Of a stretch of 64,000 nucleotides of DNA, positions 61 through 62,800 are shown piece by piece; positions within the stretch are counted from its first letter, which is position 1, and each line of letters begins with the position of its first letter. The notes beneath the pieces are model-generated. The model worked only from the letters and a program-made list of their open reading frames with translations, did no database searches and had not been told where the DNA came from. The stretch comes from Amoebophrya sp. A120 (taxonomy: Eukaryota > Protista > Dinoflagellata). Made by a program: the position numbers and the translations under genes. The stretch spans positions 3,034,158 through 3,098,157 of the forward strand of contig CAJINV010000013.1 in assembly GCA_905178155.1 (NCBI GenBank), in the 5' to 3' direction.

Positions 61-2904
61 ATGTGGAGCACATCAAACAACGTCGCCGGAGGAACAAGAA
101 GTGGGTTATTTACCCAGGTCCCGCCAAGAAGTAGTAGATCTTCATATCGTCGCTCTTTTGTCTACAACGAGGACATCAGCAGCAAACAGCACCGTCGAAA
201 AAACTCGAGCAGTTCCAGCTCCTCCGGCCACAGTCCCAGCAAACACCACGACCAAGAATTCATCCATGTGATGCGCACGGCGCGCGAGCTGCCGACCGCG
301 AGCGAGATTTTCGAAGCCCTAGACGCCAACGAGGACGGCACGGTGTCGGCAAAGGAGCTGGACAAAGCGCTGCGAAAAATGGGAAAGTCGGAACGCGTGC
401 GGGAAATCTTGCTGCAGCGAGTCTTCAGCTACCAGGGGGCGAAAGTCTCTGAGAGTGGTGGGACGAGAAATAGAGATGAATCTAGCGGTGGTATGACTTC
501 TGGTGCAGCTGCTGGTGGTTCTACCTCTCCATCTTCTGCAACAGCAACAACCTCACCGCGCCGCTGGAGCAACAGAAAGAGGTTTCCGGACGAGCAAGCG
601 GCGGATCATCAAGGTGATTCTGAGCCCGACCCGCCACCACTCTCTAGAAGGTTACAGAGCATCGTGAACGGTGCGGGCCCTTCTGCCGCGAGAGGACAGC
701 AACACACGCATAATAAAACCTCAGGACAAGTACATCAAAGCGCCAATCTGGACAAGGACCACCGGAAGACCACCCCGTTGCCGCCGTCAAACGTGACGTT
801 TGCGGAGTTCGAGCGGTACTATGAATCGAGGAAAGCGGAACTAGAGCGGGTGTACCACATGCTGACCCACCAGAACAAGAATGATTTGAATTACCCGAGC
901 AACGCGAAGTCCACTTTGGATACGAACAAAATGCGAAAATTGCTGCAACTGGTCGGGAAAAAAGTTTCCGACGAGGAGATCCGGCTGATTTTGCACATCG
1001 CGGAAACGGAGAACAACGGAGTTTTGACCTTCACGGAGTTTGCGCATTGCTGCTTCTTTGCGCCAGACGTGAACCCCGCGGCGGTCTTCGACAACTTCGA
1101 AAAGGACACGTTTTACGAGGCGGACGACAGCGCCAGTTCGGTGCCGAGTAGGCTGGATTACGGTCTGAACAAGGTGACGAAAACGGAGACAGGGGAAGTG
1201 CTTGACAATATCGTGAGGAAAAATCCCCCCCTCCCCATATCGGAAAGGAAATTTGTGATGCTGCATTTGCGTACACAAATTAATCAGTTTGTATTGGTAG
1301 AAGGTCAACAGACGCAGTTGCGGCCTTAACTGCAAGCAATTTTTCATGCTGTTCCCCATTTCGAGTTGCCTCCTGTCATGCTGAAGATGCAAGGCTTTCC
1401 CACACCGCCCAGCACTACAGTCCACTTCTTTTGCCTTCTAGCATGACAACATGACATGTAGTCGCAAATCATGCTACACAAATCCCCTCTTTGATATGGG
1501 GAGGGGGGATTTTTCATTTGGATAGACAATCAGAGCTACGACGAAGTGGTGCGGAAGCTGCTCTGCGGCATGGTGGCGGGAGCGACCTCGCGGACCGTGA
1601 CCGCGCCGATCGAGCGCGCGAAACTGATCATGCAAGCCACGCCGATGAGCACGACGGGCGCGCGGTCGACGTTTTTGGATACGTTCACGCGCATTTACCG
1701 ACACGGGACGCTGTACGACTACTTCCGCGGGAACGGGGCGAATTGCGTGAAGATCGCGCCGGAAACGGCGCTGAAATTTCTGTTGTTCGAGAACCTGAAG
1801 AAGCGGATCGCCCAGGAAACGGAAAACCCGACCACCGTCGAGCGGTTCTTCGCGGGCGGGCTGGCCGGGGCATTAGCCGGCGCGGCGATTTACCCACTGG
1901 AGATTTCCAAAACAAGATTGACCCTCGCGCCGCCGAAAAAGTACAATGGGGTGCTGCATTGTTTGCAGAAGGTGCTCTACCAGGAGGGGATTAAGAACGG
2001 GCTGTACAAGGGGCTGTCCGCTTCGACCATCGGCGTGATTCCCTACGCCGGGATAGATTTGGGCGTAAACTCCCTCCTCCGCGACTACTACAGTCTCAAA
2101 TACGAAGAGCTAAACGAGGAACCCTCCATCGCCGTCATGCTGATGTGCGGGATGATCAGCAGCTCGGTCGCGATGACGTTCACCTACCCACTGAATCTGG
2201 TGCGGACCCGGATGCTATTGCAAGGAAAAATCCCCCCTCCCCATACTTAATGAAAAGGTATAGTTTTGGAAATTTGTGATGCTGATTTGTGGTAGCAAAT
2301 CGCGTCTGTCTTGCAAGAAGGCAACTCCGCAGGCTCCTCCGCATTGTGCAGGCGGTTTGTCATGCTGTTCGGCCTACAGCGCGGACGTTTACCATGCTAA
2401 GCGCCTAAGCCAAAACCTCGCCACTCACCCCTGGCGTGGGCCCTCAGTGCTTTCCAGCAAGACAGCTCGGATTTGTGTACACAGATCCAGCGTCAGAAAT
2501 TTCGCTTCGGTATGGGGAGGGTGGATTTTTCCTTTCAATAGATGCAGATGAGCGGCTTGACGGAGATTTTCACGGAGCGAGTCGCGCGCGGCGAACACTA
2601 CACGAAAATGGAGCAGATAGGCAGTAGTACGATGGGATATAGGAGTACTTCTTCTACTTCGGCGAGTCGTGCAGGATCCTCGGCAGCTGGAGGAGGAGTA
2701 CCACCACCCTCCAATGCGTCCGTCTCTGCCTTTCAAGTCTTCAAACACATATACACCACCGCGGGTGCTCGAGGACTCTATCGCGGCTTCTTCGCGAATT
2801 TGCTCAAAGTAGCCCCGGCGACCAGTGTGAGCTACACCGTGTACGGGTATCTGGACCACTGGTTTGGCTCCGGGGGGAGTGGCGGAATGGTGTCCAGGAG
2901 GTGA
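61..2904 (+). CDS. Ca2+-binding (EF-hand) mitochondrial carrier, SCaMC/ATP-Mg:Pi carrier type; 3 exons split by two introners; frame is open from base 1, so the true start may lie upstream
   Basis: EF-hands (LDANEDGTVSAKEL, AETENNGVLTFTEF) then three carrier repeats (APIERAKLIMQ, YPLEISKTRL, YPLNLVRTRMQ, GLYRGFFANLLKVAP). Removing elements 1209-1524 and 2216-2540 plus one TSD each gives in-frame EVLDNQSYDEVVRKL and LVRTRMQMSG. Confidence 0.9.
1209..1524. mobile_element. Introner, family B
   Basis: TIR tatcgtgaggaaaaatcccccc-ctccccatatc / gatatggggaggggggatttttcatttggata; TSD gacaa (1204-1208, 1525-1529); removal restores frame. Confidence 0.93.
2216..2540. mobile_element. Introner, family B
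   Basis: TIR tattgcaaggaaaaatcccccctccccatac / gtatggggagggtggatttttcctttcaata; TSD gatgc; removal restores the carrier motif RTRMQ. Confidence 0.93.
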
Positions 2905-3424
2905 TGGCCGAGACAAATTTTCCGAGAAATGATGACTGCGGTCGTGAACAAGCGCAAATTGATAGCGCCAGCACGCTCGCAGCAGATAGTCTCAGATAGT
3001 AGAGAACTACCTTCATCACTTCCTCTGCGAGTACTATTGACGTTCTTTTTTCTACAACTGCATGAGAATACAAGTTGTGCATTTCTAAAGTAGGCTTTCA
3101 TCTCATTATTCGAGAGAAGCAAATGCAAAATTCGAGCACTCTTTTCCCTCATTGTTCTCGGCCCGTAGTTGCGCTTCATCTTCTCTTGGGGTTCTTTCGA
3201 CATGTTTTCTTCACGCGAGCGGTCGTGGCGTAGGTTTAGCTCATCTTGACGGTTGCGTTTGGTAGTGGACGCGAGGAGTTGAAGATTGCAGTGTGGGTGA
3301 TGTTTTCTGAGCGAAGCCGGAGGGTATATAGGTACCCCTTTTTTCAACATCCGAGGTTTCAAACCGACACCCAAGGTGGGTAGTTCCAGATTTTCAAAAC
3401 CTACCAAATCTAGATGGCTATCGC

Positions 3425-4640
3425 ATGGTAGCAGCAACAGAAGACCCCTCACCTGGTGAGGGGGAGGAAAAAAATAAGGCAACGCCATTGTCCACTCCTC
3501 CTGCGACAGGAGCAGGAGTAAAAGAGAAGCCGGACGACCACGAGGATCGCTTGGAGCACGATACTTGTAAACCCGAGGAACCAGCACGAGAACAACTAGG
3601 AGAGCCTTTACAACATAACGCAAAAGTGAGCGATAAGCACAGCAAGGCGAAGGCAGAAGCTGCAAGAGAACTACTACGTCGGCAACACGCTCCATCCTGC
3701 TGCCACTTTTGTTGTCCGGGCAGACCGTATCAAATGTAAAAATGTCTGGGTCTGGAAGAATGCAACTTGTGATGCTGCGTCTGCATTATCCAAAAAAGCT
3801 GTATTGCATGAACAGCAAAAGAGGTCTGGTTTTGGTCACGGCGAGAGGGCATTTCTCATGCGGTATAGGCATCAGAAAGCCCTCACAAGATCTGTGATGC
3901 TAGGGCATGCATCGCAGACATCAGGAGTCATGCAAAATGTGCATGACAAACCTTGCACCCTTCCAGACCCAGACATTTTTGCATTTGATAGACCGCTGTG
4001 TTTCCTGATTTTTCTTTTCCTCCTCGTCTTTGCAAGTCTATCCTTCTACGCCAAGCACTTGCAGCGAAAGCACGCCTTCTACGACGAAGGGCCGATCTTG
4101 TTGGGTCGTAGAAAGCGGGTCTTCCATCATGGCAGGCGCGGGCGGCACGGTGGAACGGTAAGAAATTTTCAAGCAAAGCACCAGTTTTTGAACAGAATCG
4201 ATGACGACGCAGATGACGAGGAGCAGCAAGGGGAAGCTGAAACACGTGGTCGTCCAGGAGAGGGAGCAAGCACACCCGATCTTCCGGCAGAAGATGAGAC
4301 CAACATCAACTACGAATACGACCACCAGGATCGGGAAGACGAAAATGAAAATGCGCCAGCAGAGCCGCAACCCCCGCCACGGTACTTTCACCGTCGGCAC
4401 CTCCGTTCGGAACAGCCGACCGTGAACCCGAATAAGCTGAAGGGCTTCGACTACCTCCTTGCCGTGGATCACAAGCAACAGAAGCAGCTCGACAATGCTT
4501 ACTGGGACATGATGGGCAGCGACGATCCCGATGAGATCGACGACCAGATGCACAGCGCGTGGCAGAAAATGCAAAGAGAAGACGCGTTGGTTCTGAAGAG
4601 AACGGCACCAAAAAAGGTGGTCGATGACGATTCAGATTAA
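3425..4640 (+). CDS. Hypothetical single-pass membrane protein (2 exons)
   Basis: ORFs 3425 and 3804 fuse in frame (CCPGRPLCFLIFLFLLVFASLSF) after removing element 3728-3990; one hydrophobic segment. Confidence 0.7.
3728..3990. mobile_element. Introner, family A
   Basis: TIR tatcaaatgtaaaaatgtctgggtctggaag / cttccagacccagacatttttgcatttgata; TSD gaccg. Confidence 0.95.
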
Positions 4641-9097: not shown

Positions 9098-10709
9098 ATG
9101 GCGACCCAAGCAGCATCCTCTTCCGCTCATCCCGGCGGACCTCAAGACGACAACCCGGCAACAAGCAACCTGACCCCGCAGGACGCGGCTTTTCTTCGGG
9201 AGCACGCGTACCTGGCGAAATTAGCGGAGAAGGAGAGGGAGATCCAGAAGTACAAGCAAATCGCGAATGACGTGCAGAACCGCTTCGAGGACAATTTCGA
9301 GAAAACTTCGCTGCGGTTCGCAATGGTGGACCCGGCGGTGAACATGGAGATTTTGCTATTACAGTGAAAAATGCCCCCACCCCCAAAGTTGCACAAATTT
9401 GTGATGCGAAGTTTCCAAATGAAAACTTTTTGTCATGCATGAAAGGAGTATTTGTATGAATCTTTCTGATGCAGAGTCTAGGCGTGTATCGCATCGCTTG
9501 CATGACAAGCGCCACTCTTGCTGGGATCTTTTGCAATGCAAATTTTTTCTATTCACGATTGGAAGTCTGTGATGCTGATAGATGCAAGAGGGCGGATGTT
9601 TCATTTGGAAAGATTTGCAATACAAATTTCCCCAAGTTCGGGGGTGGGGGCATTTTTCCTCTCAATATCTGCGGCTACGGCAAAAAATACGCTCCCAGGA
9701 CGAGGAAATCGACGCACTGAAAATGGAACTGAAAGCGACACAGTTTAAGCCGACGAGGTAGACATAGTTTCATGTGTAAGTAAGTATTCCTTTATTGCAC
9801 CCTGTAGAAGTTTTGCTTGCAATCTGTGTATTGCATCTACTTTCGTTTCCATCACAAAAGATCAGAAGCATTACACTTCCAATACTATTCTTTCACCCCT
9901 GAATATGAATTAACAGTATCTCCGGGCAAAAGCTGATGAAGAAGTGCCGCGCTCTTTTGGAAGAAAACCAGTCGCTCGGCCGCCAGATTTCCGAGGGCCC
10001 GATTCAGGATCTGCTGGTTGCGCTCGGGTATGAAATGCAAAAATGTCTGGGTCTGGGAACTTGTGATGCTACTTTGTCAATGGTGGGCGCATTGCAATAT
10101 GCAGCCACGCATGACAAGTTTTTGAACTTCTGTGTGTTTCGCTTTCCGCATGACAAACTGCATATTGGCATGACAGGAGAGAGGGCCTTTTTCCTGCTCG
10201 TGCATTACAGATTTAAGAGTCGTGTGACGCAAGCACGACAAACTTGCACTCTTCCAGACCCAGACATTTTTGCAATCCATATCGGGAGCGAGAGGCAAAC
10301 GGTGAAACAGTTGAAGGAGAAGCTGAAGCAGTCGGAAACCGCGCGACTTGAACTTGATAACGAGTGCGAGCGGCTGTGTGCCCTGGTGGAGTCAAACGGG
10401 GGCATTAGTGAGCTCCCCGCGATGGAAAACCCGATGTACAGCGAGATGATGTCCGGCTTGGGGTACAACAATTCATCCGCTGGTGTCGCGGGCGGTGGGA
10501 CCCACTCCGCGTCTTCTAACGGAAACGAGAATTTCGAGAAGGAGGACGGCACGACGAAGTCGAAGAAATCCTCTACGGGAGAGAAGCGGTCCGGGAATGA
10601 TAAGAACGGGGAAAATGGGGTGGACAAGAAAAAGAAAGACCGAAAACGAAGAAAGGTCAGTCCCGGGGCCAGCGGGGCGGTGGAAGAGAAAGAGGAACGG
10701 AGTAAATAA
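9098..10709 (+). CDS. WTAP: WTAP/FIP37/Fl(2)d-family m6A writer regulatory subunit
   Basis: Reconstructed MVDPAVNMEILRLRQKI...ATQFKPTSISGQKLMKKCRALLEENQSLGRQISEGPIQDL matches the WTAP core (LLDPAIN...FTPDSQTGKKLMAKCRMLIQENQELGRQLSQG). Two introners plus one GT-AG intron (~9758-9917). Confidence 0.85.
9357..9667. mobile_element. Introner, family D, imperfect TSD
   Basis: TIR tattacagtgaaaaatgcccccaccccc / gggggtgggggcatttttcctctcaata; TSD tttgc / tctgc; internally the reverse complement of 53212-53517. Confidence 0.9.
10029..10281. mobile_element. Introner, family A
   Basis: TIR tatgaaatgcaaaaatgtctgggtctgg / ccagacccagacatttttgcaatccata; TSD tcggg; removal gives ALGSERQTVKQL. Confidence 0.93.
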
Positions 10710-11582: not shown

Positions 11583-14500
11583 ATGTCGACCACTCTACTA
11601 CGGCAACAGCAGCGTCAGCACGACGACATGGAGGCGGAGATTTTCGAGGATATGTGCTCCATGACGATGACGAGTACTTCCTTGAATCTGGCCGAGAAGG
11701 GTTTTGACATTGACAAACTCGCGAACCAGGCTTTTTTTGAAGAGGACCTCCCGGGTTTCGCCCACTTTGACGTCGTGGAGCATGACCAGCACGGGACGAA
11801 CACTATCAACGACTCGAGCTCGCTATGCATTGCAAATATGTCTGGGTCTGGAAGTCGATAACTTGTGATGCTGTCTTTGGATTCCAAAAAAATCTGTATT
11901 GCATGACTAGCAAGAGGAGTCCAGTTTGTGCCACGCGGGAAGGGCGTTTCTCATGCAGAATAGGCATCAGGAAGCCCCCTAAAAATCAGTGACGCTAGTA
12001 GGGCATGCATTACAGGCGTCGCGGGTCATGCAAAATATGCATGACAAACCTTTGGCAATCTTCCAGAGCCAGACGTATTTGCATTTCATACTCGCCCAAC
12101 CGCTACATCTACAACGAGGCGGAACTGCAGAGAGAGCAGGAAAGACGAATGCGGCAGCAACAAAATATTAACCATCAAAGCCAGAACAACCAGCAGGTGA
12201 ACAACAACTATTCCCAATCGACAAACAACTTCAGTCTAAACATGGCAAATCGACAGCAAGAATCACTTATCAAATGTAAAAGTGTCTAGGTCTGGAAGAA
12301 TGCAACTTGTCATGCTGTCTTTGGATTCCAAAAAAATCTGTATTGCGTGACCAGCAACAGGAGTCCAGTTTGTGTTACGCGGAGAGGGAGTTTCTCATGC
12401 GGAATAGGCACTAGGGAGCCCTCTAAAAATCTGTGATGCTAGATCATGCATTACATGCATCATGGATCATGCAAAATCCCGAAGTCTTCCAGACCCAGAC
12501 ATTTTTGCATTTGATATCACTCTCCTTTCTGCGTGACCCGAGCTACACCCGCACGGTGTCGACCTATCCTGTGCAAAAGTATCGTACTCGTAGTAATTGC
12601 ATTTATGCATTACAAATCTCTTTCTCAAGGTAAATCAGCACTACAAATTCAATTTGTAATGCTGGGCTAATTTGTAATGCAATTTATACTAGTACGATGC
12701 TTCTGCATTTCATACGACCGCGCACCAGACGACGCTGCTGTTTAGTCAGGAAAACGAGGACGAGGAGGCGTTGTCAGGTGAAGACGAAGAGAATATGCCC
12801 GGTGGTCATAATGCAGCAGCTGTAGAGCGAGAGCAGCAGGACCATGATCTTCACAGGGACGTCTACTCTTCGGATGACGACCTTAGGCGGATTGCTGCGA
12901 AGGCCGCCCCAGAGAACAACCGGAATATAATTAACAAAACTACCAGTCCCAAATCTAGGGCAAGCCAGAGTTATGAGGGCGAGCATGGAGATTCGCTGAA
13001 GAAAACGTCAACAAACAACAGCAACACAACGCATGAGCAGGACCACTTGCAGGGGACTCAGCAGGACACACAGATCCTCAACGACACGCTTTCCTCTCTG
13101 GGACAGCTCGACAACGCAGATCGGCCGAAGAACGACAGCTGCGCAAGCGAGTACCAGGTCCGGAGTCCGCCGAGGAGTCCGAAACAGGGAGCATTAAGGA
13201 ATGACGAGGTCGGAGGTGACGTGCCGAATATCAACACCAGCCAAAAAAAGCAGCTACAGAGACCCGGGTCCGCGCCGTGCCTCCCGAGTCGGATCCGCTA
13301 TTTAGTTCAGCTACCGAACAACAAGAAGGAGAACCACGTCGCGCTGGCCAACGGGCATTTGTCGAGGAAAACGAAGGAGAACTTGAATCTCGAACCCGAA
13401 GACTACCACCGCGCGTTAGACCACAACAGCCGAGTGCACGATTTGCAGGAGTTGTTGCTGAAGCAAAACATGAAAACGTCGAAGAAATACCACGCCTTCG
13501 TGGAGATGCTGAAGGACCGGAAGAGGAACGAAGCCAGCCGGTTCCCCCGACGGTGTGACCTGATGCAGATCGAGACGTTTTTCAACCTACGCGACTACAG
13601 CAGTTCCGAAGGGCCAAACATCGACTTGGCGGACTACAACGCAAGGTTCAAGCGGGACAAGCCCGGGACGCTGCAGATGATCTTTGTTTTCTACGCGAGG
13701 CTCTACACGGTGTTGAAGAACATTGAGGAATACCAAATCCGGCTGGGGTTGAACAACTACGACAGCAGCAAGGAATCGACCTCCTTTTTCCTGCCTTACG
13801 ACATGAGCAAACACTCCTTGACACTGCGGGAGATCAAGGATTTCTGGCTGGACTTCAACCTGAAAAAGCACATCAACTGGTACAAGTGCACCCAGATCTA
13901 CCAGGCGGTGAACACGAGGCCGACTTTGGACAGTCAGAACCGGGTTGGGTTGACCCTCGAGGAATTCGTGAAGTTTTTGGTCCTGATCGCACAGGAAATT
14001 TACCGATTTCAAATCGTCAAGCCGCACAAACGGGTGCAGACCTTGGTTTCCTTTTTGAACCTCCACAGGTGGGACAGCGTGAAATCCCATTTGCGGAACT
14101 GTTTCCGGTATGCATTGCAAATATGTCTGGGTCTGGAAGAGTCAAAACTTGTGATGCGCATTTCACAACACATGAAAATCTCTCATGCACAGGCAGCAAA
14201 AATTTCCCACCTTCTGTCACCAAAATGGGGCATTCGTGATGCGGATTCGGCATTGCGGAAGCTTCTCGAAAGCTGTGATGCTAGAACTCGTCCCATGCCA
14301 GACCTTCTGTGCCATGCAAAAGCAGCATTACTCGTCCAGACCCAGACATATTTGCATTTGATATCCGGGACCACCACCTGCAGAAGTACGATGAGTTGAC
14401 GGATTATGGAAGTGTCAGAATCGGAATTGACAAAATCGAAAAATTTGCGATGCATAAAATCGATACCAGTTGGAGCCTCAGTTTGTAACTGGCGCATGAC

Positions 14501-17500
14501 AAATTTCGGGAGCACCCAAATCCAGTCTGTCATGCTGTTTGGGCAAAGAAGACTCCTCCTTTCGTGCTACTCTGGCAGCGCATTTTATACCTCTAAACAG
14601 GCTTACAATCGGTCTCATTTCTTTGCCTGCTCCCCAATGCAGTCCTTACGTGCCCTACAATTTATGCATCACAAGTAGTTTTTCGATTTTGTCGATTTCG
14701 ATCCTGGCACTCCCATACGGATTTTGCGGTCGTGGCGAAGCGGTTGTGGTTGTTAACGAAAGCGGCGAAGATATCGAAGAAAAAAAGTTCGTCACGATCA
14801 CTCATGCGCATTCTTGCAATACAAAATTGTTTGTCATGCGTAAAAATGCATCACAGCCAAACTTCATTAGGGATTTCCCTAGTGTTTCTGCAATACAAGG
14901 AAAGTTTGTGATGCTGAGAAAATTTGTAATGCAAAGCCTGCAAGTTAGTGACTGTGACAAACTTTTTTCTCTCCATAGAAGACGACACCAAAGTTTGACG
15001 ACGTGAAGATGTTCGACAAGCAGAATGGAATTGACGTGAAACGGTTCGGGCTATCAAACGTAAATATGTCTGGGTCTGGAAGAGTGCATGCTTGTCATGC
15101 TTGTCTGGCATGACTCTCAAATCTGTCATGCACGTTACCCAAGAGCGCTACTTTTCTGTCATGCAGAAACGCAGTTTGTCGCGCCGAATAGGCAACACCT
15201 AGAAGCTCAGAAACTTGTCATGCTAAGCCAGCACTTGTGGCCTCCTCCTCATGATACGCCACCGAGCATCACAAGTTTCCAGACCCAGACATATTTGCAT
15301 TTGATACGGGCTGCACAAGTATCTGTGGTTAAATGTGGAGAAATATCAAATGTAAAAATGTCTGGGTCTGGAAGATTGCGAGACTTGTCGTGCATATTTC
15401 GGATCACGCAAATGGCGTCTGATGTAGGCAAAAGCATCACAGGTTTTGAGCACGCCTCATGATGCCTGTCCCGCATGAGAAACTTCCTACTTGCTTGCCA
15501 AGAAATGGACAGCTTCTGGTGCGCATGCAACACAACTTTTTGTGTGTTCCAGAGTTTGCATCACAAGTTCCAACCCTTCCAGACCCAGACACTTTTACAT
15601 TTGATAAGAAAGAGTGGGTGAAGTTCACGGAGCAGAATAGCTACGCCAACGGAATTAACATGCCGCGGTTCGACTACGCGAACGCGAAATCTTTCAACTG
15701 CTCGGTGCTGCCGTTTCTGGACTGCGGGATCATCTCGATCGGAGAGACGAAGCACTTCAAAATCAAGGTGAAAAACCTCTGCAACCACAAGGCGTCCTTC
15801 AAAATGGAGCCGGATTACCACAACTGTCCGACCTTCGTGTCTGTGACGTACCAGTGTCCGCGAGGGGGCGTGGCGCAGGGCGGCTTCATCGAGGGCGTGG
15901 TCAAGGTCGCGCCGGATTTCGTCAAGGAAGCGGTCGGCAGCTTGGTGGTGTGGCAGAAGTCCAGTGCTGGGGAGTAGGATAGTGTTTCTGTTTGATAATT
16001 TTTTTTTAGTTCCGACGTTCTTTCGCCATGAAGTAGATCGATGTGCCGTGGTGGTCTCGGCAGGAATACATCAAGTTTGCAAGAAAACCTCCAAAGTGAA
16101 AAAGTCTGGACCTCTTCAATCTCACTGTCAGGTTCCGCGAGGCCCGCATTCCACTGTACGTGAAAGCCGTCGACATGGAGATGTGGCATGAAGGGGATCC
16201 GTACCCGTCGAAGTATCACACGCAAATCGGCACCGAAATACCCGCGACCGACGACAAGCTCCGGACGAATTGCCTCCCGGCGACCATCCCGCCCGCGTTC
16301 CACCGCGCGGACACGAATGCGGTGAAAATGCGACGGGAAATAAAATTTTCTTTGAACAAAAAGATTTGCCGCAACGACGACATCCTCCCGAAAGACGGGG
16401 CCAAGCCGGACAAGAAGGTCTACTCGAAGCAGAAAGTAACGAAGCTGCAGCAGAAGCCGGCGAACCGGGCGAGCGTCACGATGGGAAACTTGGGCGTGAG
16501 GACGGAATTCAAGATGCAGACGGAAATGGGCACGTTTTTGGACAACGAACCGGTGAACGCACAGAACTTCGGGGGGATAAGAAATAGCACGCGGCCGAGC
16601 ACGGCGGGAGGGGTTGGGAGTAGCGGAAGCACTGCAGCTGCCTCTCCTGCTGGGATGAGGCAGCTGCCTCTCCGGACACTGCAACGACCGCAGTCCAGCG
16701 CTGGGATGATGACGATGAACGAACAGGCCCGGTTCGACAACCTGAATCGCATCCAGGCCGCCACTATCAAATGTTAAAATGTCTGCGTCTGGAAACTTGT
16801 GATGCTGCGTTGGGAATAGTGAATGCTCTGTAATGCACAGCCAAGCATGAGAAATCAAATATCTGCGCTTCTTTGTGTGGCGTTTTTCGCATGACAAACT
16901 GCGTTTCTGCATGACAGGCAAAGGGGTCTCTTCTTGGACACGCATCACAAACTTTTTGGTCATCCCAGACAAGCATGACAAATCTTGCATTCTTCCAGAG
17001 CCAGACAATTTTGCATTTGATAGCCACGTCAGTGCCGCGGGTTGTCGGCCCGAAGCGGAGGTTTCTGGGATTTTCGCAGGAAGAATTAGAAGAGAAGCAC
17101 AACACGCGGGAGAGGATCGAGAAGCAACGACAAAACCAGAAGGCCACAGGCGTGATCAGCGGAAAACGGATCAAGCACTGCCGACCCGAGGACCCGACCC
17201 TGTTCGGAACGGCTTTCGAGCTGGACACCGAACTCCGAGATAGCGATGAGGAGCCTTTTGCGGAAGAGGAGAAAAAGCCGCCAAGTAGAATGAACGCTTG
17301 GTCGTCGGTGCCGCTTCTGCGGTTGACGAAATCGGACGCTTTAGAGAAGGAGCAGTACTTGAAACAGCGAAGACACGACTCAACGATTTCCAGGAACCGG
17401 CTGCGCAACCGGCAGATCGTGCAAAACTCCAAATTTTACAACTCGATGGACACGGCGATCAACGGGGAGCAGCAAACGTTGTCGACTGTCAATCTAGCTG

Positions 17501-43625: not shown

Positions 43626-46280
43626 ATGATTTCGGAAAACTACAGCGGTGCTGGACCGGATACCCACGCTGCAGACACGGCGGAGGGAAACAAGAACACT
43701 GCTTTATTACAATGAAAAATGCCCCCTCCCCATATCAAAACGGAAATCTGTGATGCAGATTTGTGGTCACAAATGACAAATCAGCTTTGTGATGCTAGAA
43801 GGCAAAAGATGCGGACTGTAGTGCTGTCCGGCGTGGGAAAGCCTTACAGCTCCAGGATGACAAAAGGCAACTGGAAGTGGGAAACAGCATGACAGATAGC
43901 CTGCAACTTAGGCCGCAGCTTCGTCTCTTGGCCTTCTAGCAATACAAGTTGATTTGTGTACTCAAATACAGCATCACAAATTCGCGCATCTTCCGTTTCC
44001 GATATGGGGTGGGGGCTTTTTTCAGTTTGATATGCTTCCACAACATCATCAATCACACCAGTAGCTCGTGGTCGTCTCCGAGCAGAAGATGGTGCAACGA
44101 CGACGGCTACAGAGATTTTTCAGGCCGAGAAACAAATATCCATCCCAAGAGAGGACCACAACTACGACGGCAGTACTAGTTCCGGTGCGGCTACAGCAAC
44201 CTACTCTTCCAAGTCTCCACCGGGCGCCACTCTTTTAGAAGAGTTCGCGTTGCAACAGGACGTCGGATCCACAGGAGTCATAGACTTCCATATTTCACTG
44301 CCGGACGAGCAGCAGGGAGGACAGGCGCTGCATCCAGTTGACAATAGTACAGAGATGAACAATACGAGAGCGCCGGGCCTGTACGGCTTGATCTACTATT
44401 CCACGATCAGCGTTGCGGACGACCTAACTGCGACGAAGAACAGCACGTCGACCGCGCGCGACCCGTTGTTGTGTAGCTCCAGTTGTGTGATCCTGCAAAG
44501 ACAGCGGACAAACAACAGCACAGCAAGCCGTGGAGCAGGAGACCAAGAGCTGCATCAAGGCAGTTGTACCAGCCACGTGGTACTGCACGACCACCTCGTC
44601 CCACAGGGAACAACGACCACGACGTCAAAATCAAAAAGTAGTAACATCAACACTTTGACGACCAGTTTTGTGCTCCCTGAAACAAGCGGCTCGCAGTTGC
44701 TACAACAGGATGCAGTTCACGATCATCAGCAGAGTCTGCAGCGACACAGCTTCGCCAACAAACTGCGGGAAAAACTGATCCCCACGGCTTTGCGCCGTGA
44801 GAACGAGCTTTATGCGAACAACGAAAGTAGCTCTGGTTCCTCCTGTCGGTCCAGTATGTTGGAGGAAAGCACCACCTGTCGGCAAATGCAGCGCTCCGTC
44901 CCCGGCCCAACGGGGAGCAGCAGCAGTTTCGGCACCGTGAGGAAAGTGCCGAAGCCGCTCGAGTTTTCGGATTTGGACCAGTCCGACCACACTTACCACT
45001 CACACGACCACGACAGTCAGAAGTCGGACTCGTCCTCGCAATTCACGCTTCCGGATCAACATTCCGCGCCCCGGTCCGTGCCGCGCTCGAGACAAATCAG
45101 TAGTACGGAAAATTCGTCGGCTCAACTCATGTTGACCACGCCCGTGCTCTCGGACTATTGTTCTGCATTGGAGCAACAGGAATATATTCTTGCCCGGGTG
45201 GCACAGTACAAAGAGCCGAAGATGACCAAGAGCCAGCGTGTCTTGATGCAACAGAGGCTGGACATCCAAGCCTACCAGCGCTGGTTACGGGGTCCGGGAA
45301 GGAGCAAGTCGGCGAATCTACCGATTGGAGCGAAGGCGGAAGTGCCAGTGCCGGTGCATCCCATACCAAACTTCTAGCCCAGAGAAAAAAGCTGTTACAC
45401 CAACATGGCAGTCTTTTGATACCAAAAGAACAAGCGAGGAAGAAAACAAATATGAGAGAAACAAAAACGTCGGTCTTGCATAGTGCCTCAAATTATCGCA
45501 TGCCACGGGCTACTGGCCCACGACAAGAATTTTTGTGCTGGAATATTTGCTTATGACATCATTAGCAAAAAATTACGGTACGCTGGCTTTTTTCTGTGTG
45601 ATACGTTCGGGTCCGGGGCACCGATTTTTCAGAGCAAGACAGCGCCGCCGGCTCACGCAAAGTCTTCCTCCTCGTCAGCGCGCAGGGTAAACAACTGGAC
45701 CGGCTACGAACAGGGGGAAATACGCCCGCAAATGACCCCAGCGCCTGTTGTCGGCAGAAATCCACGAGACGCCGTGGCCCCTCCTATCATGACCACCAGC
45801 CAGCAGCGAGACGTTTTGAATGAGTCTGACCTCATATGCGAGAAATAAACTGTGAATGATAATGGAGGTCCTCCTGGGAGTCGTGACAGCATGACAAAAA
45901 TTTTGTTCCGGCATGTCAGATGAAGCCAGTCAGGCACATCTACTTAATGCTTGAAAACACATGTGAAAGATGACTTCAAGGCTGGCCAGAATAGCAATTG
46001 CAACTGTGATGATGTAGCGTGCTTCACATTTTCAGACTGACACTTGAACATACACAATTTTTTTGTTGCATACCTCAGTTGTGGCACGTCGCGCAGCATC
46101 GAATCGGTGGAAGGCCGGGCCTCGGTTGTCGCCTTTTCTCTACCCGTGAGGGATCAAGATGATCCGCCGCCACCCAACCAGCTGCACGCAAACCGAGCGT
46201 TCAACATCCCGGATGTGCAACGACGAGCGCACGATCCTAGCAGAAGTAGCGAGGATGGCGATGGTCTGCGAGGATGGTGA
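43626..46280 (+). CDS. Low-complexity hypothetical protein, three introners
   Basis: MISENYSG...KNTASTTSS, ...HPIPNFGSGAPIFQ..., ...ESDLSCGTSRSIES join in frame after removing three elements. Confidence 0.7.
43705..44032. mobile_element. Introner, family B (opposite orientation to 1209-1524)
   Basis: TIR tattacaatgaaaaatgccccctccccatatc / gatatggggtgggggcttttttcagtttgata; TSD tgctt. Confidence 0.92.
45375..45603. mobile_element. Introner, degenerate family J (left end TAG)
   Basis: TIR tagcccagagaaaaaagc / gcttttttctgtgtgata; TSD acttc / cgttc; removal restores frame. Confidence 0.75.
45835..46072. mobile_element. Introner, family I
   Basis: TIR tatgcgagaaataaactgtg / cacaatttttttgttgcata; TSD cctca; removal restores frame. 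Confidence 0.85.
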
Positions 46281-52235: not shown

Positions 52236-52478
52236 CAGCTGCGGCTCCCTTTTGACACAGCGGGCCTGGGTCATGGCTCCGTAAGTAGCGTGCTTCGCTT
52301 TACGTGTTGTACGTCATCGTGTTCGGTGTTTTTCTGTTTCCGAGTCAATGGGAGAGTGAGGCAGACAAGTTGTGCACCTCGGGAGATCGGTGAGTGAGAG
52401 CTACAATATCTGAAAACAAGGCTAAGAGTAGAGCGCGCGGTCTTCAGGGTTTATTTTTCCGCAAGCAACCTCGTCAAG

Positions 52479-53674
52479 ATGGCGGCTCCTTCTATGGCTT
52501 TCCCGCTTCTGTTCTTCCACTTCAACCGGAACAAGGTTTGGCACCGCGACAAGCGGCTGACCCGCGAGGAATTACAACAGTTCCCCGAGATCTGGACGAC
52601 TTGGGAGAGGCGTTGCTACCGCCAATTCCTCGACGAGGCCAAAGACTGGAACGCCAGCAAAAAAGATCAGCAGCCCAAAGTGCACATCCACTACAACAAA
52701 AACAAAGGCTCCTCCAGTTCTTCCTCCACTTCCAACATCGGGCGAGATAGCGAAAGCACCGAGCTGGGCGAGATGGAGCTGAAGCAGCAGCAGCTGCAGA
52801 AGATTTTTCCGCAAGAACACATCTACCACACTTTGCAAGAAGACGTGAAGAAGTGCCGAAAACGGATGCACTCCAATATCCTGAGTAAAAACGTACCCAC
52901 ACCAGAGTCAAGTTGGGGAATCAGCTAGACAAATCCACAAGTTTTGGCTGTTTTGCATGACAAATTTGGATTCGTAGTGTAGTGCTGCTTGAGCTAGCTA
53001 GACAGCATCACAGATCTAGCATACCATGCTGATTGGAGCATGACAAATTGCAAAACACGACTAGAAAATGCTTCTCATGGGGCTCCGCATGAGAAACATT
53101 TTCAGCATGCAGATTTGCATTACAACTCTGGTGTGGGTACGTTTTTACTCAGGATATCCAACGCGACACTGGAGTCCGCGCACGAGTGTCACTACCGGAT
53201 CAAGGAGCTGATATTACAATGAAAAATGCCCCCACCCCCGAACTTGAAAGCATTTGTATTGCAAATCTTTCCAAATGAAACATTCGCCCTCTTGCTTGTA
53301 TCAGCATCACAGATTTCCGATCGTGAATAGCAAAAATTTGCATTGCAAAAGATCCCAGCAAGAGCGGTGCTTGTCATGCAAGCGATGCGAAACACGACTA
53401 GAATCTGCATCAGAAAGATTCTTACTCCTTTCATGCATTACAAAAAGCTTTCATTTGGAAACTTCGCATCACAAATTGTTGCAATTTCAGGGGTGGGGGG
53501 CATTTTTCACTCTGATAGCTGACGGACGTATGTCTGTACGCCGGGGTGCACTTCGCAGACAGCGCCGCACCGGTGTTCGACGATACTGAGTTCCACAGGA
53601 TAGCGGCGACGGCCTTCCAAAGGTTGGAGGAAGGGAGGGGAAGGCATGAGATCATGGGGGTAAGGGGGAAGTAG
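52479..53674 (+). CDS. Hypothetical protein, two introners
   Basis: ORF 52479, micro-exon 53162-53211 and exon from 53523 join as RMHSNATLESAHECHYRIKELTDVCLYAG. Confidence 0.7.
52877..53156. mobile_element. Introner, family C
   Basis: Perfect TIR tatcctgagtaaaaacgtacccacaccagagt; TSD tccaa. Confidence 0.95.
53212..53517. mobile_element. Introner, family D
   Basis: TIR tattacaatgaaaaatgcccccacccc / ggggtggggggcatttttcactctgata; TSD gctga. Confidence 0.93.
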
Positions 53675-54126: not shown

Positions 54127-57100
54127 ATGAAAGTCGTTGGGAGCAGCGACGCCACTGCAGCATCATCTGCATCGTCCTCCCCCGCTGTTGAGAGTAGGAG
54201 CCGCGGAGTTTTTACTCGTCGCGTGACTACCGCAGCCCCTCTGCAGACCGCAGCAACGGCCGTTGCCCCCTGTGCAAAGCAGTTTCGCGTCCTTTTGTTA
54301 CACGACACTGCTCGTCGTTCCTGCTGCTGTGAAGCAAGGATAGAAGGAGCAGCCAAGAGAAAAGAACCGCCGAACGTGAAGACCACTACGCCAGCGCTCG
54401 AGAAGTCACGAGCCAAAACTCGCTGGAAGCAGCGCTGGAAACAAGGTGGTGGGACGTCGAGTCGTCTTGAGACCTGTGTCCATTTATGCAGGAAGAATCT
54501 ACTCTTTCGCGCAGCGCCCGCGATATGTTGTCTTCTCTGGAACTACATCAACTTTTTCTTCCTTTTGTCCTTCGCGAAGATCGAAAGCAAAAACAACACT
54601 CCGGTGGAGAAGAAGGTCACCGTGAAAGAGACCGTTTTTGACTCTCCGATAGATCGCATGGAGTGGTGCGGGGACGACAACGAAGTGGTGCTGATTTTAA
54701 CCCGGAGGGGCAGACTCCATCGCTCTTCAGACGGCGGCGTTCGATGGGACGACATCACCGCGCAGCTCGGCGACGCGAACGACAACTCGTTCGACTCTTT
54801 CTTGGTCTCGCCGGCGGATAAAAGGGTATAAGTAAGGACCACGTATCACCAGTACAATAGACGACTATCACTTGATGTTGAGACCTATGTCTCCGACCGT
54901 ATAGATACTTGCGTTTCATCATCCCAGGCCAGGGAGCCTCCCCTTGGTTGTGAGTGCATGTAAAAATTTTCGCCCTAGGTAGTCGCGCAAAACAAAAAAG
55001 TGCACTGCTTAAGTTGAACTTGCCTCACGATTTCATACACAGTATCTCGTCGCCGTGGGTACTTCCAAATCCCATTTCGTGTCTTCCGACGCTGGCAGAT
55101 CGTGGCGGAAGTTGAAGCAAAAGGCAACGATCCACACCTTCGTGTTCCACCCAACCAAAGGGCAATGGGCTCTCCTCTCTAGTTGGACGGACAGTTGCAA
55201 CGATAGCGCCGCAGAAAAGCGGACCAGCGCCGGGAGCAAGGCGGAAAAGGCGCTCAGCGGACGGGGGGGAAGTCAACAGCCGTGTGTGCATAACTTGTTC
55301 GTCACCAAAGACCTCGGTATTTTATATTCGATTGATGCGTGCACAAGCGGTCTTTCTTTTCACTGTACGTAGTAGAAGAGTGGTAGTAAGTACCATGATA
55401 TCCTTGCCGGAGTCAGCACTAGGACTAAAATGGAAGGCAGCACGACCAGGCAGCGCAATTCGTTCTTTCGTTCAAACAAACTCCTCCAGGCGTTACCTTC
55501 ACCCTCGTGAGTTCCTACGTGGTTCAATTCGCTTGGGGCGAAGTAGAATCCGCAGCCTCGACATCAACTTCGCAGCCACAAGGCGGAACGTCCGCAAGCT
55601 CCCCCCAGCAACTCCCTCCTTCCGGAAAGGAAAACCTCATTTACTTCTCCCATTTCAACCAAAAATCCGGCAACCAGCCGAAATTGCTCGCCTGGTCGCT
55701 CGGGGTCGACTTCTGCGTCACCGAGGACTTCGGCAGGAATTACCAGACCCTCGTCCCCGCCGGGAATAAGTTTGGCATCTTCACCGGGTACATTTTCGTC
55801 GCGAAACTGGACAACGCGGCCACGCAGAACGTCGCACTGATGGTGTCCACTGATGACGGAAAAAGTTTCGGTCGGGCGAAGATCGGCGAGCAATTGGAGG
55901 AGTATCAAGTGTAAAAATGTCTGGGTCTGGAAGATTCTGACACTTGTCATGCACGTTTTGCATGAGCCCTGATGTCTGTGATGCATACCCTAGCAATACA
56001 GTTTTTTTGAGGGCTTCTTGATGCGTATTCCGCATGACAAATGCCTTCTCCGCGTAGCAGAAATTACATTCCTTTTGGTACTCATGCAATACAGATTTTT
56101 TTGGAATCCAAATGCAGCATCACAAGTTGCATTCTTCCAGACCCAGACATTTTTACATTTGATAAGGAGAAGTCGTACACAATTCTCGACACGTCCGAGG
56201 GCGCGGTTGTGCTCCACGTCCACCTATCAAATGTAAAAATGTCTGGGTCTGGAAGAATGCAAGATTTGTGATGCAGTTTTTCCATGACCCGTAACCCCTG
56301 GAATGCAGCACCTAGCATGACAAACGCTGCGAGGCGTCTATCATGCCTATTCTGCATGAGAAACTCCCTGTCAAACTGTTCAAAAGTGGACATCTTTTGG
56401 CAATCATGCAACACAAATTTTTGCATGCTTCAGATTCAGCATGACAAGTTGCATTCTTCCAGACCCAGACATTTTTACAGTTGATACCACCACGGCCACA
56501 TCGGCGACACGGACGTGGGTCACGTGTACATTTCTGATGCGAAGGGGCTGCGATACACCAAGTCCCTCTCCGCCAACGTGCGGAGTAACGATGGTACGTG
56601 TGACTTCGACAAGGTGGGCGGTATCGACGGGATCTACATGGCAAATCAGGTGGACACGGACGAGTTGTATGGGAACGACAACGCCGAGGACTTGCGGGAA
56701 GACGTCGCCGACGCGGAAGAGGAAATCGCCAACAAAAATATCGCGGGAGGTGCGGGACCCAGTGCGATGAAAAAGGGGAAGAGCGAATCCAGGGTGCGGA
56801 CGGTCATATCCTTTGATAAGGGAGGCACCTGGAGCGTCATTGCGCCGCCGGAGTTTGATAGTTTGGGTACAAGAACTTCTACGCATAGATAGTTAGGTCC
56901 TTTCAGATAATTACCCTGTTTTCGCTTTTTGTTTTTTCTGTTCAGTGTTCGCAAAGACTTACCGGCTCTTCTTGTCATGGTAGATGTAGGCTGCGGATGA
57001 ATTTGTACCACGCCTAAAATTTATATCAAGGTCAACGCGTCGACGCCTGTGACCAGCTCCGAATACAACAATCGTCCACTTCCTCCCCACAATCCTGCAG

Positions 57101-59802: not shown

Positions 59803-62800
59803 ATGGTTGCAAAAGCTGGCTCTAAGGCTGCGAAGAAGAGCAGCAAGAAAGTTGCGCAGAAAGGCAGGGCAAGCAAATCTTCTGCCTCTCAGGGTGCTGC
59901 TACAACCATTAGAGGTGCAGGTGCAACTGCGTCAAGTAAAAAACTGACGAAGCAGACATCCAAGTCGAGCAGTGCCACGTCCACCGCTTTCGACGATGAG
60001 GATGAAGTATCAAATGCAAAAATGTCTGGGTCTGGAAGATTCCGGGATTTGTGTTGCATATTTTGTATGGTCCATGATGCATGTAATGCATGATCTAGCA
60101 TCACAGATTTTTAGAGGGCTTCCTGATGGTGATGCCTATTCCGCATGAGAGATGCCCTCTCCGTGTAACACAAACTGGGCTCCTGTTGCTGGTCACGCAA
60201 TACAGATTTTTTTGGAATCCAAAGACAGCATGACAAGTTGCAATCATCCAGACCCAGACATTTTTGCAATCCATATGAAGACATGTTGGAGCTGCAGCAC
60301 TTGCCCCATTTCAACGACCTGGTCGATATGAACAACCTGGAGCAGAACAGCGACGCGCAAGTATCCTGAGTAAAAACGTCCCCACACCAGAGTTGTCATG
60401 CAGATTTGCAAGCACAGGAACATTTGTAATGCGCATCGCCAGGAGAGGCATTTTTAGTCGTGTTTTGGAATTTGTAATGCTGTAAACAGGATGAGCAGAT
60501 GGATTTCTGATGCAGCTGGCCTTGCGAACCTGCACTACACTACGGACTGCAACTTGTGATGCGTGACCCCCAAAAGTTCTAGGTTTGTGTTGCAAAATCC
60601 CCATCTTGACTCTGGTGTGGGGATGTTTTTACTCAGGATAGCAAGATGACGAGCAGGACGAAATTGATCTCGAGGGATTTGTTGTTGATGATGAACAAAC
60701 CGCCAGCCAGCCGCGGCGCTCCTGGCGCTTCAACGTCCGGGAGTACGACGGGACGAGGACGGTTGTCGTGGATTTCGGCGGGGCGAACAAGAGCCCCGCA
60801 GACGAGTTGGCCGCGAGGGAGAAAAAAGCCGCTAAGAAGGCGGAGAAGAAAAAAATGAAAGCGATGAAAATGAAATCTAAGGGGGCCGCTAGTACTGCTG
60901 GGCGAGCAAATAAGGGAAATAACAAGAAAACAGTTACTTGTGACTCTGATTCGGACGATCTGGAACAAGATTCTGATGAAGATGATTTGGGGAAGGAAGA
61001 AGAGGAGGCAGAGGCGATCGAATTCGGTGTCGGGGACGCAATTTTGTACACACAGCTAGTACAACCAAGTGACCCGGATTGCAACGGCAAAAATTCATCG
61101 TCGTCAACTGTCTCCTTCAACGATCTCTACCTGAATCCCCGCGATTCGGAGAAAGTGCAGTTAGGTTTCGTCATGGGCTTTGTTTCGGCAGGCAGTACTA
61201 GCGATGACGAGATGGAGGATCTGCACGCAAGCAAATCCAGCAAACGAAAATCCTCTAAAGCTTTTTCGACGAGGACGAAAGAGAAGAAGAAGAATGCGAA
61301 AAACCACGACGCAAAATCAACATCCGACAACGGCAAATCAGACCTCTTCATCAAAGTCCGCCGATTTGCGCATTCCGGCCAGCTCAACAAGCTGTTCACC
61401 ACGAAGAAGGAAAAAGACGCGTTTGAAATGCACGATCAGGAACTAATTTTCACGGAGTGGGAAGAGGTGGTGTCTTTTCACCAAGTGGAAAATACCTGCG
61501 TGATCTACTCCGCAGAGGAATTTTTTGACGACAAAACCCCCGACGGTGCGATCGCGGAGACGGCGGACGTTTTGCTAGAGTTTTTCTGCCGCCGGGGTTT
61601 CACGGAAAGCAGCCAGAGACTATCACATGTAAAAATGTCTGGGTCTGGAAGAGTGCCAGACTTGTCATGCAGATTTTACATGACATATGACGTCTGTAAT
61701 GCATAACCTGGCATCACAGATTTTTAGCGGGCTTTCTGATGCCTATCCCGCATGAAAAATACCCTCTCCATGATGTAGCACAAACTGGACCCCTCTTGCT
61801 GGTCATGCAATACAGATTTTTTTAGAATGCAGAGACCGCATCACAAGTTGCAATCTTCCAGACCCAGACATTTTTGCATTTGATAGAGACGGGGGTTTCC
61901 CGATTTGGAGTGGAATACGGTCAGCGAACTATTGTGAGGAAAATCCCCCCCTCCCCATATCGAACAGGCATGCTTCCGAAAATTTGCGTTGCTGATTTGA
62001 GGTCACAAATCACATCTGTCTTGCAAGAAGACAAGGGCAAAAGCTTCGCCCCCATTATGGAGGCGGTTTGTCATGCTGTTGGGCCTAAAGGGGAGCCGTC
62101 TGCCATTCTGAACAACTAGACCGATACGCCCCTGCATAGCCGGGGGATCTGGCCGCGATGCCTTCCTGCAATACAAAGCCGATTTGTGTACACAAATCCC
62201 GCATCACAGATTTCCATTTCGATACGGGGTGGGGGGATTTTTTCTTTTGATACGAACAGATCGTGAAGCATTTAAGGGAGATGAGTGACACGGCTAGTAC
62301 CGGTGACACAGCACTACAAGCTGGCGCGGGAACATCATCTTCAAAAAGTGGAAATAAAGATAGAAGCAAGAAAACTAACACTACAAAAGAGCACAAGAAG
62401 CTGAAAGTCCTGACGAAAGTTTTCGCCGACGACCACGACGAAATGTCCGACGATTCCGACACGGAGGAGGACGAAGCGGACAACTTTTCCTACCTGGACA
62501 AAATTTACAACAACGAGAAACAAATGAAGCAACTGTTCCCGACCTGGTTTCAGCGAATGATGGAAGCACGGAAGCAGTTGTTGCCAAGCAGTATCCCGGA
62601 AGTGCTGCCCTGCCGGGAGAAGGAGAAGGAGGAAATCTACGCGTTTTTGCGGATGGCGCTGGAATCCGGGGACTACGACCACAACAAGGTGATGTTCATC
62701 GCCGGACTGCCCGGAACGGGCAAGACCGCGATCGTATCCGAGATTTTAAACGAGATGGCATCTTCTTCGACTTCATCATCGTCAGCTTCAAGTTCATCTT

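Follow-up and report, generated by a model that had tools for sequence, protein, structure and literature searches.

Coding sequence in the window (the whole 64,000-nt stretch of DNA analyzed) is interrupted by 31 insertions of 150-328 bp with TAT...ATA ends, inverted repeats and a 5-bp target duplication, and at all three junctions shown by RNA-like contigs (elements 1209, 2216 and 3728, named by their first position) the element is missing together with exactly one copy of the duplication. They are MITE-like DNA transposon insertions without coding capacity and belong to the A120-type introner class; as such they are already published and of no new kind. Regarding their removal from pre-mRNA, our best explanation is an end-reading, ruler-type RNA cut-and-join process outside the normal spliceosome, an account that we judge to be evenly poised between right and wrong.

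Anatomy and orientation of the elements

Elements were called by their TAT...ATA ends, an exact 5-bp duplication and an arm identity of at least 13/25, a combination found in 29 of the 31 and expected 0-1 times by chance (30 order-2 Markov resamples of the window); the two elements with imperfect duplications, 9357-9667 and 40063-40353, were added (Table 1). The initial annotation had counted 32 elements with a 5-bp duplication at each. Scans of the window for other termini yielded no 32nd element and the duplication is exact in 29 and imperfect in two; the span given there (1204-62257) was correct, and the observation of the insertions overall is confirmed. The candidates 3802-4434, 25105-25567, 46554-46925 and 47195-47491 were dropped at an arm identity of 5-9/25, and 42515-42765 was likewise dropped as an element.

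TAT is present at 60/60 profiled ends and positions 11-15 are A in 85-96%, the symmetric end motif being TAT-N5-G-N-AAA. The elements form repeated families without coding capacity, with interiors that are unrelated between families; an internal motif, TGTNATGC, is common to unrelated families in both directions, and 39721..39976 is the sole element of the window without it. Terminal inverted repeats, a fixed-length duplication, the lack of an ORF and a high copy number (DNA-like depth on elements of up to ~120,000, vs 45 on the flanks) all agree with a MITE. A cognate autonomous element was found in none of 144 loci, the longest being 972 nt without a long ORF, and the literature is conflicting on an autonomous element sharing these ends. 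The end pattern had no matches in viral and prokaryotic collections, and Rfam had none in the window; no conserved catalytic core of group I/II or other Rfam self-splicing type was seen, the interiors being unrelated between families and present in either orientation. Neighbouring elements cluster at 30-100 nt spacing, and the short gaps between them have no significant periodicity (P=0.15).

Family members are paired 285 times in the same and 305 times in the opposite orientation (23:20 in the largest family), and the end profiles do not differ between 5' and 3'. The elements insert into coding sequence in either orientation, with a 5-bp duplication. Since orientation and duplication sequence are irrelevant, the removal signals appear to reside in the element ends, as expected from the earlier claim that the element itself is recognized rather than classic splice sites.

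In the predicted fold, the arms of 30 of the 31 elements pair on the sense strand. Nothing points to selection on this RNA fold: pairing at arm positions 4-10 is no commoner than with shuffled partners, the sense strand carries no excess of G.U (119) relative to A.C (102; P=0.28), fold energy has no sense/antisense asymmetry, covariation in the arms is null, and the branch-like YTRAY has no sense-strand excess (90 vs 93 of 149). In appearance, the conserved signals could be DNA-binding sites just as well as RNA signals.

Table 1. Elements and a canonical intron in the window; elements lie inside + strand ORFs.
Feature	Position	Strand	Duplication	Remarks
Element	1209..1524		GACAA	EF-hand mitochondrial carrier gene; gone, one copy left, in RNA-like contig
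Element	2216..2540		GATGC	Within carrier motif RTRMQ; missing from RNA-like contig
Element, largest family	3728..3990		GACCG	Missing from RNA-like contig
Element	9357..9667		TTTGC/TCTGC	One mismatch, synonymous; WTAP gene
Canonical GT-AG intron	9758..9916	+		WTAP gene, same as elements 9357 and 10029
Element	10029..10281		TCGGG	WTAP gene; RNA-like contig piece begins at 10282
Element	11824..12090		CTCGC
Element	12268..12516		TCACT
Element, shortest (150 bp)	12565..12714		CGACC
Element	14109..14363		TCCGG	Orientation opposite to 17981
Element	14405..14717		CGGAT
Element	14772..14977		GAAGA
Element	15052..15306		CGGGC	Orientation opposite to 18276
Element	15344..15606		AGAAA
Element	16765..17022		GCCAC
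Element	17981..18232		TGTTG
Element	18276..18527		TGTTT
Element, degenerate arms	24026..24280		GATGA	RCC1-repeat gene
Element	35902..36181		GAAGA
Element	36270..36587		TCATT
Element, degenerate arms	39721..39976		AACCG
Element	40063..40353		CAACA/TTACA	Two mismatches; left copy kept in gene model P0001
Element, longest (328 bp)	43705..44032		TGCTT
Element	45835..46072		CCTCA
Element	52877..53156		TCCAA
Element	53212..53517		GCTGA	Orientation opposite to 9357
Element	55903..56164		AGGAG	VPS10/sortilin gene; orientation opposite to 3728
Element	56225..56486		CCACC	VPS10/sortilin gene
Element	60008..60275		TGAAG	ORC1/Cdc6-like gene
Element	60362..60640		GCAAG	ORC1/Cdc6-like gene
Element	61621..61885		GAGAC	ORC1/Cdc6-like gene
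Element	61930..62252		CGAAC	ORC1/Cdc6-like gene

Reading frame and junctions

All 31 junctions fall inside + strand ORFs of at least 100 aa, a single ORF holding up to eight elements, and a protein of the window is 100% identical over 553 aa to the Amoebophrya sp. A120 gene model P0001. As had been proposed, deletion of an element with one duplication copy restores the frame: when the element + 5 nt is removed, the shorter side has a median of 137 open codons, vs 42-46 at the offsets compared (+0, +3, +4, +6 and +7, all outside the frame that +5 shares with +2 and +8), and retention of the element would disrupt the frame in 116/117. The conserved junction motifs were recovered as peptides for the carrier, WTAP and VPS10, and for ORC1/Cdc6 the support is limited to frame continuity, the Pfam domains of that gene being downstream of the junctions. 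For WTAP, colinearity with Pfam is exact across element 9357, and the L101 junction is exact to the residue when compared with an 83% identical orthologue; the orthologue search for L064 found none. The host genes are intact and conserved, contrary to the pseudogene alternative.

The RNA evidence consists of the three junctions, in contigs of one run (X3) whose RNA status is a guess; one X3 contig is free of six GT-AG introns, exactly 828 nt in total, and X3 is therefore taken to be a spliced sample. Removal was seen directly at these 3 of the 31 junctions, and the size of an RNA-like contig at element 9357 appears to agree with removal; the raw-read RNA runs X9 and X10 placed 5 and 3 reads, respectively, too few to be informative. 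In X3, element sequence is also joined to other flanks (which could be pre-mRNA or DNA), with an implied element depth of ~2-3, all copies summed, vs 13.4 for exons. The DNA-like run X1 passes from flank into elements at a depth of 42-45, near flank depth, and DNA-like contigs retain the elements. Because the elements remain in the DNA, the contrast previously drawn with DNA-transposon excision, which usually leaves a footprint, is beside the point.

The claim that removal is seamless, with one duplication copy in the message, agrees with 3/3 RNA-like junctions. Use of cryptic nearby GT/GC and AG sites by the normal spliceosome, with small protein changes tolerated, is hardly credible: an in-frame GT/GC-AG pair does lie within ~30 nt of the ends of 30/31 elements, but the three junctions contain 0 other letters and the L101 junction is residue-exact. 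Moreover, at element 1209 a GT-AG pair that would excise the same length in frame lies 4 nt off and is unused, and classic sites are thus ignored even where on offer, in line with the initial annotation.

On the sense strand, none of the 31 window elements has a duplication register that would yield GT-AG or GC-AG, which upholds a further claim; as 1.8 would be expected by chance (P(0)=0.15), canonical sites are unselected rather than avoided. Such pairs are possible in 7/101 cases on the sense and 4/101 on the antisense strand, at a chance rate of ~5.9%. GA-AG is possible at element 55903 and a mixed-register AT-AC at 40063, and as a set the elements lack the GT/GC-AG or AT-AC ends of U2/U12 introns. 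Spliceosomal chemistry uses fixed dinucleotides at both intron ends; no single register provides them here (16-96 combinations, 130 elements), and no duplication position has a base preference. The duplication is sequence-neutral and the elements insert without target preference.

The position of mismatches in the duplications has no sense-strand bias (4,2,2,2,2). Single mismatches lean synonymous (10/13, 9/14 and 12/18, vs 34-46% expected were one copy to evolve freely as intron), an excess that depends on the threshold (P between 0.003 and 0.12 for singles and as high as 0.39 when all changes are counted). Two weak sites hint at a cut in the middle of the 5 nt, and elements with differing duplication copies could reveal the cut position and its fixity.

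A template-switch artefact at direct repeats around a hairpin, with elements kept in the mRNA and ribosomes hopping duplicated codons, or with dead genes, is very improbable. One class of reverse-transcriptase artefact is reportedly linked to direct repeats. The anatomy seen here resembles that class as described in PMC8240250, a 5-nt repeat always contains one complete in-frame codon (by arithmetic), and the RNA evidence is wholly cDNA-derived; however, the low element depth relative to exons, the intact and conserved host genes with their multiple elements, and a duplicated in-frame codon altered at position 1 or 2 in 7/18 mismatched sites (one 8-bp case excluded) speak against it.

Possible routes of removal

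In the cut-and-join account, an integrase-like transposase acting in trans may have made the insertions, a factor would recognize the symmetric end motif, the long stem behind the end motifs would probably bring both ends together, and cuts would fall in the flanks at distances totalling 5 nt, followed by exon ligation. With flank cuts summing to 5 nt, the protein would be unchanged regardless of the duplication letters, and the reported 'no clear splicing signature' reduces to a single rule, element + 5 nt. Euglena offers a precedent, with hairpin-ended introns, a spacer rule and circular products (PMC12501133, PMC11282704). Neither an enzyme nor an excised product was observed. If an end-reading, orientation-blind machine exists, this eukaryote would have a second mRNA-processing system, any insertion would leave the protein unharmed, and the invasion would thereby be explained.

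The main rival, possible though doubtful, is a retooled spliceosome, in which an end-binding adaptor would replace U1/U2AF and position the U2/U5/U6 core, with a lariat that branches within the 3' arm. In A120 no U1 snRNA was detected (PMC7789003), and nearly all spliceosomal proteins, including U1 proteins, are kept; the same genes hold GT-AG introns, and a U-run with adenosines is always found in the 3' arm, in either orientation. Additionally, in the tunicate Fritillaria, non-canonical introns that have inverted repeats and duplications are excised by the spliceosome, but those introns retain dominant dinucleotides such as AG-AC, whereas here no register yields non-random sequence at both intron ends, YTRAY lacks the sense-strand excess, and the GT-AG option at 1209 is ignored. 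Since symmetric ends could present spliceosomal signals either way, the present data do not single out a dedicated machine over a retooled spliceosome, and spliceosomal algal introners are likewise reported to insert in both orientations (PMC10228655). Seamless removal and non-GT-AG, end-located signals therefore stand from the earlier interpretation, and its dedicated machinery does not stand apart from this rival.

It is also conceivable, if unlikely, that inserts in the tens of thousands are passed over by a strand-blind, transposon-derived end-binding machine, which would reseal the message at any point of the 5-nt repeat. This could happen by RNA recombination guided by microhomology or by a polymerase that jumps across a looped-out element; splice sites and a lariat would be absent, excised intron RNA might be too, and eukaryotes would have a new gene-to-mRNA route.

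Skipping at the level of DNA or transcription, where a transposase-like protein would synapse the ends and the polymerase or a transient DNA copy would rejoin in the 5-nt repeat, making no intron RNA, is a distinctly unlikely reading. The fully strand-symmetric signals without RNA-fold asymmetry, the motif shared in both directions within unrelated families, and the synonymous lean of the mismatches, as if both copies could reach mRNA, are compatible with it. That lean varies with threshold, the elements are near full depth in DNA-like contigs, and X3 contains element sequence joined to other flanks. We know of no germline-soma split in Amoebophrya, a marine parasite, and of no eukaryotic precedent for such skipping.

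Comparison with known systems

Ciliate internal eliminated sequences are transposon-derived inserts in coding sequence that are removed precisely, leaving one direct repeat, and are excised from somatic DNA, whereas the elements described here are still present in the DNA-like run X1. The nonconventional introns of euglenids (PMC12501133, PMC11282704) share non-GT-AG ends, terminal inverted repeats and a MITE-like origin, likewise occur alongside spliceosomal introns, and have a spacer separating the pairing motif from the cut. Euglena introns, however, follow a directional code, N3CDG...CH'GN5-6|R, with an exon-start purine preference and known circular products, whereas CDG...CH'G and the purine preference are absent here and the TAT...ATA ends are fully symmetric, with unbiased flanks.

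Fritillaria introns (PMC11282704, PMC13326754) are likewise transposon-derived, with inverted repeats, target duplications and mostly non-GT-AG ends, but differ in having dominant dinucleotides (e.g. AG-AC), a target preference and a removal ascribed to an altered spliceosome; neither such dinucleotides nor a target preference were seen in our elements. The introners of Micromonas and Aureococcus, as described in PMC11282704, PMC10228655 and PMC9860276, share a MITE-like make-up, inverted repeats, duplications of which one copy is removed, both orientations and an insertion spacing bias; they differ in that GT/GC and AG are carried or co-opted and removal is spliceosomal, whereas the duplication here is unconstrained.

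As already reported by Farhat et al. 2021 (PMC7789003), and recognized in the initial annotation, Amoebophrya carries non-canonical introner elements. In that paper their ends are given as TAT-N7-AAA and an alternative splicing mechanism is proposed; those of A120 are defined by TAT, seven variable nt and at least 3 A, with a direct repeat of 3-5 nt at the exon-intron boundary (PMC7789003). That paper terms them strain-specific relative to A25. We find the same families in a second (sister) genome, where the 5-bp duplication is exact in 161/193 and sister loci contain full-length relatives of 28/31 window elements; the invariance of TAT and A11-A13 in that set is partly built into the detection pattern and was excluded as evidence. 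In the literature searched, we found no report of insertion in both orientations within families, duplication neutrality, sister-genome families, the shared TGTNATGC motif or the 30-100 nt clustering.

The inverted-repeat start, the direct repeat, the non-canonical removed boundaries, the non-coding families and the host type of A120 introners are all found in the window. The ends, inverted and direct repeats and non-canonical junctions are shared (PMC7789003, PMC12130899, Gozashti et al. 2025), as are the ~250 bp size and the absence of an internal transposase (PMC7789003, PMC12130899), and there is no difference in kind. To the A120 reports, the present analysis adds the strict 5-bp duplication, random orientation, the internal motif, clustering and a second genome.

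Elements of the window and their published counterparts

A scan for TAT...ATA ends, an exact flanking 5-bp duplication and arm identity of at least 13/25 positions detected 29 elements in the window; a control on 30 Markov-resampled versions of the window yielded 0 or 1 element each. Two further elements have imperfect duplications (see the table). The window thus holds 31 elements in place of the 32 counted in the initial annotation, and the 5-bp duplication beside inverted repeats, which had been ascribed to all of them, is exact in 29. As had been proposed, deletion of the element plus one copy of the duplication restores the frame at all 31 junctions, within + strand ORFs of at least 100 aa (72% of the window after element removal). 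When the element and 5 nt are deleted, the shorter junction side keeps a median of 137 open codons, compared with only 42-46 for deletion of the element plus 0, 3, 4, 6 or 7 nt. The host genes encode an EF-hand mitochondrial carrier, WTAP, an RCC1-repeat protein, VPS10/sortilin and an ORC1/Cdc6-like ATPase; the WTAP pieces align to Pfam positions 4-54 and 84-116 and are separated by exactly 29 residues. All predicted genes of the window lie on the + strand, an arrangement like the co-oriented gene blocks reported in Amoebophrya.

Amoebophrya has been reported to have more than 60% non-canonical introns; in A120 the inverted repeats start with TAT, followed by seven variable bases and at least three A, and the direct repeats are 3-5 nt long (Farhat et al. 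2021, PMC7789003). The same authors detected no U1 snRNA and left the removal mechanism unresolved. According to Gozashti et al. 2025 (PMC12130899), most A120 families seen, in 22 of the 58 A120 supplement rows, are TIR DNA transposons, and an integrase-like ORF was noted in one family. Given these published descriptions, the window elements are a rediscovery; the elements were already known, and the constraints added here make their removal easier to test.

Features with their coordinates (window positions unless a sister locus, L, is named)
Feature	Position	Description
Element	9357-9667	Imperfect duplication
Element	40063-40353	Imperfect duplication
Kinase gene	5237-8656	Pfam Pkinase; presumably casein-kinase-1-like from its motifs; six GT-AG introns, no element; best-covered gene displayed in the RNA-like run
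Gene region	11466-18709	11 elements, no Pfam matches; micro-exons of 37-74 nt between hairpins
Gene	38886-42019	One exon 100% identical over 553 aa to P0001, a gene model whose source labels it Amoebophrya sp. A120
G+C-rich island	50800-52280	67-70% G+C, flanked by a methyltransferase gene and the gene that follows it; five long frames gave nothing in Pfam, nor did Rfam give a match; terminal repeats not evident
Single internal-motif copies	6812, 7700, 9868, 22880, 37793	Within actual or apparent GT-AG introns; may be remnants of old elements
Sister element, L045	1829-2108	Duplication of 8 bp instead of 5 bp; deleting element + 5 would stay in frame
Long variant, L049	1501-2472	972 nt; usual ends, exact 5-bp duplication, unrelated filler, no long ORF
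Long variant, L031	571-1051	481 nt; otherwise as L049
Long variant, L051		496 nt; otherwise as L049

RNA-like and DNA-like contigs

The contig run X3, whose RNA status is presumed, is spliced material, because its record 11 lacks 828 nt, the exact sum of the six GT-AG introns of the kinase gene. Record 9 covers 1-1203, 1525-2210 and 2541-3066, and record 10 covers 3039-3721 and 3990-4690, both with no other letters. The resulting skips of 321, 330 and 268 nt equal the element plus 5 at 3/3 junctions displayed in full (16 of about 20,500 pieces and 15 of 670 joints listed), so that one duplication copy stays, as had been expected for RNA. A reverse-transcriptase artefact (PMC8240250) combined with ribosome hopping is a very improbable source of such skips. 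Use of cryptic GT-AG sites is the least credible explanation. An in-frame GT-AG pair of equal length does lie 4 nt off element 1209, where it is bypassed in X3. As previously claimed, none of the 31 elements can be placed in a sense-strand register with GT-AG or GC-AG ends, but chance alone would give only 1.8.

The run X1, presumed to be DNA-like, has even depth across intergenic DNA. Eight of its contigs enter 11 elements from the flank, 22-69 nt deep, at a depth of 42-45 (45-54 in element-free bins); 4/15 flank-element crossings meet the 31-letter standard, the contigs omit rare variants, and X1 may itself be the source of the window. Skipping of the elements at the transcription or DNA level is considered improbable.

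Sister loci, orientation and spacing

A search of metagenome contigs with the end motif gave 144 loci which, judging from a flanking exon that shares only 83% identity with P0002, its orthologue in A120, stem from another genome. At one of them (L101), deletion of the element and 5 nt gives a residue-exact match to P0002. The loci contain 193 distinct elements; an exact duplication is seen at a length of 5 bp in 161 of them, but at lengths of 3, 4, 6 and 7 in only 0-1. The host strand was confidently called for 118 of the 160 elements with enough flank (42 were left out) by a window-trained codon model, which in the window itself was correct for 29/31, training overlap included. Among 101 elements with exact duplications, no base preference was found at any duplication position, and a GT-AG or GC-AG reading is available for 7 on the sense and 4 on the antisense strand. 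Across the window and the sister loci, insertions are spread unequally over the three codon phases (58, 31 and 28 of 117), to which the model's frame call may contribute.

Relative to host transcription, close pairs among 149 elements are in the same orientation 285 times and in opposite orientations 305 times, the largest family is split 23:20, and the profile of the 5' end resembles that of the 3' end. In the window alone, where all hosts are +, elements 3728, 11824 and 12268 are opposed to 55903, 56225, 60008 and 61621. We found no discussion of orientation in the main text of PMC7789003 and PMC12130899, whose figures or supplements may cover it, or in a literature search. Since spliceosomal algal introners have also been reported in both orientations (PMC10228655), orientation by itself cannot exclude the spliceosome. 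Removal by a retooled spliceosome, as in tunicates (PMC13326754), is a serious if doubtful alternative.

Gaps of 32-83 nt account for 12/30 in the window, where shuffling within ORFs predicts 3.4 (P=5e-5). In the sister loci, counting both ends, the density of next-element starts is 2.9-3.6 per kb over distances of 30-100 nt, 0.6-1.3 beyond that range and 0.25 under 30 nt. As adjoining elements are frequently of different families or subfamilies, the clustering looks more like target choice next to an element already present than like tandem duplication.

Signals, cut position and removal

What families with unrelated interiors share is TAT-N5-G-N-AAA at the ends and TGTNATGC/GCATNACA inside, the internal motif being present in 30/31 window elements in both directions (98 copies in 8.4 kb of elements, 10 in the 55.6 kb outside). 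Predicted sense-strand folds pair the arms in 30/31 elements. Such pairing need not reflect selection as RNA: pairing at arm positions 4-10 is no commoner than with shuffled partners, G.U and A.C number 119 and 102, and fold energies are strand-symmetric, all of which counts against a purely structural reading.

Any given register, that is, placement of the junction within the duplication (N1-N5), fixes at most one intron end. At 40063 the transcript-based model P0001 has the bases of the left copy at N1-N2, and at L101 the orthologue's lysine would indirectly agree with the right copy at N4; on these two sites, the cut may fall after N2 or N3. Single mismatches between copies are synonymous in 11/14 cases (10/13, 9/14 and 12/18 at three thresholds), where 34-46% is expected if one copy is free intron (P 0.003-0.12, rising up to 0.39 with double mismatches), a threshold-dependent lean that would fit mixed registers. 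NT-NN, the commonest A120 splice sites in Farhat's Table S4 (PMC7789003), are what results when four bases of the duplication stay upstream of the junction, so the tabulated variety may arise from one slidable geometry.

From the 5-bp duplication and the literature, insertion would be due to an integrase-like transposase acting in trans; the 144 sister loci yielded no autonomous copy. Removal would involve an RNA cut-and-join machine that reads the element ends and uses a 5-nt ruler, the reading we favour, at about even chances. Another Amoebophrya splices canonically (PMC12005148), offering a comparative route to the removal factor. End-reading cut-and-join may resemble in its working the removal of euglenid nonconventional introns (PMC12501133, PMC11282704), although A120-type elements stand outside that family; with algal introners they have both orientations in common, whereas the unconstrained duplication distinguishes them.
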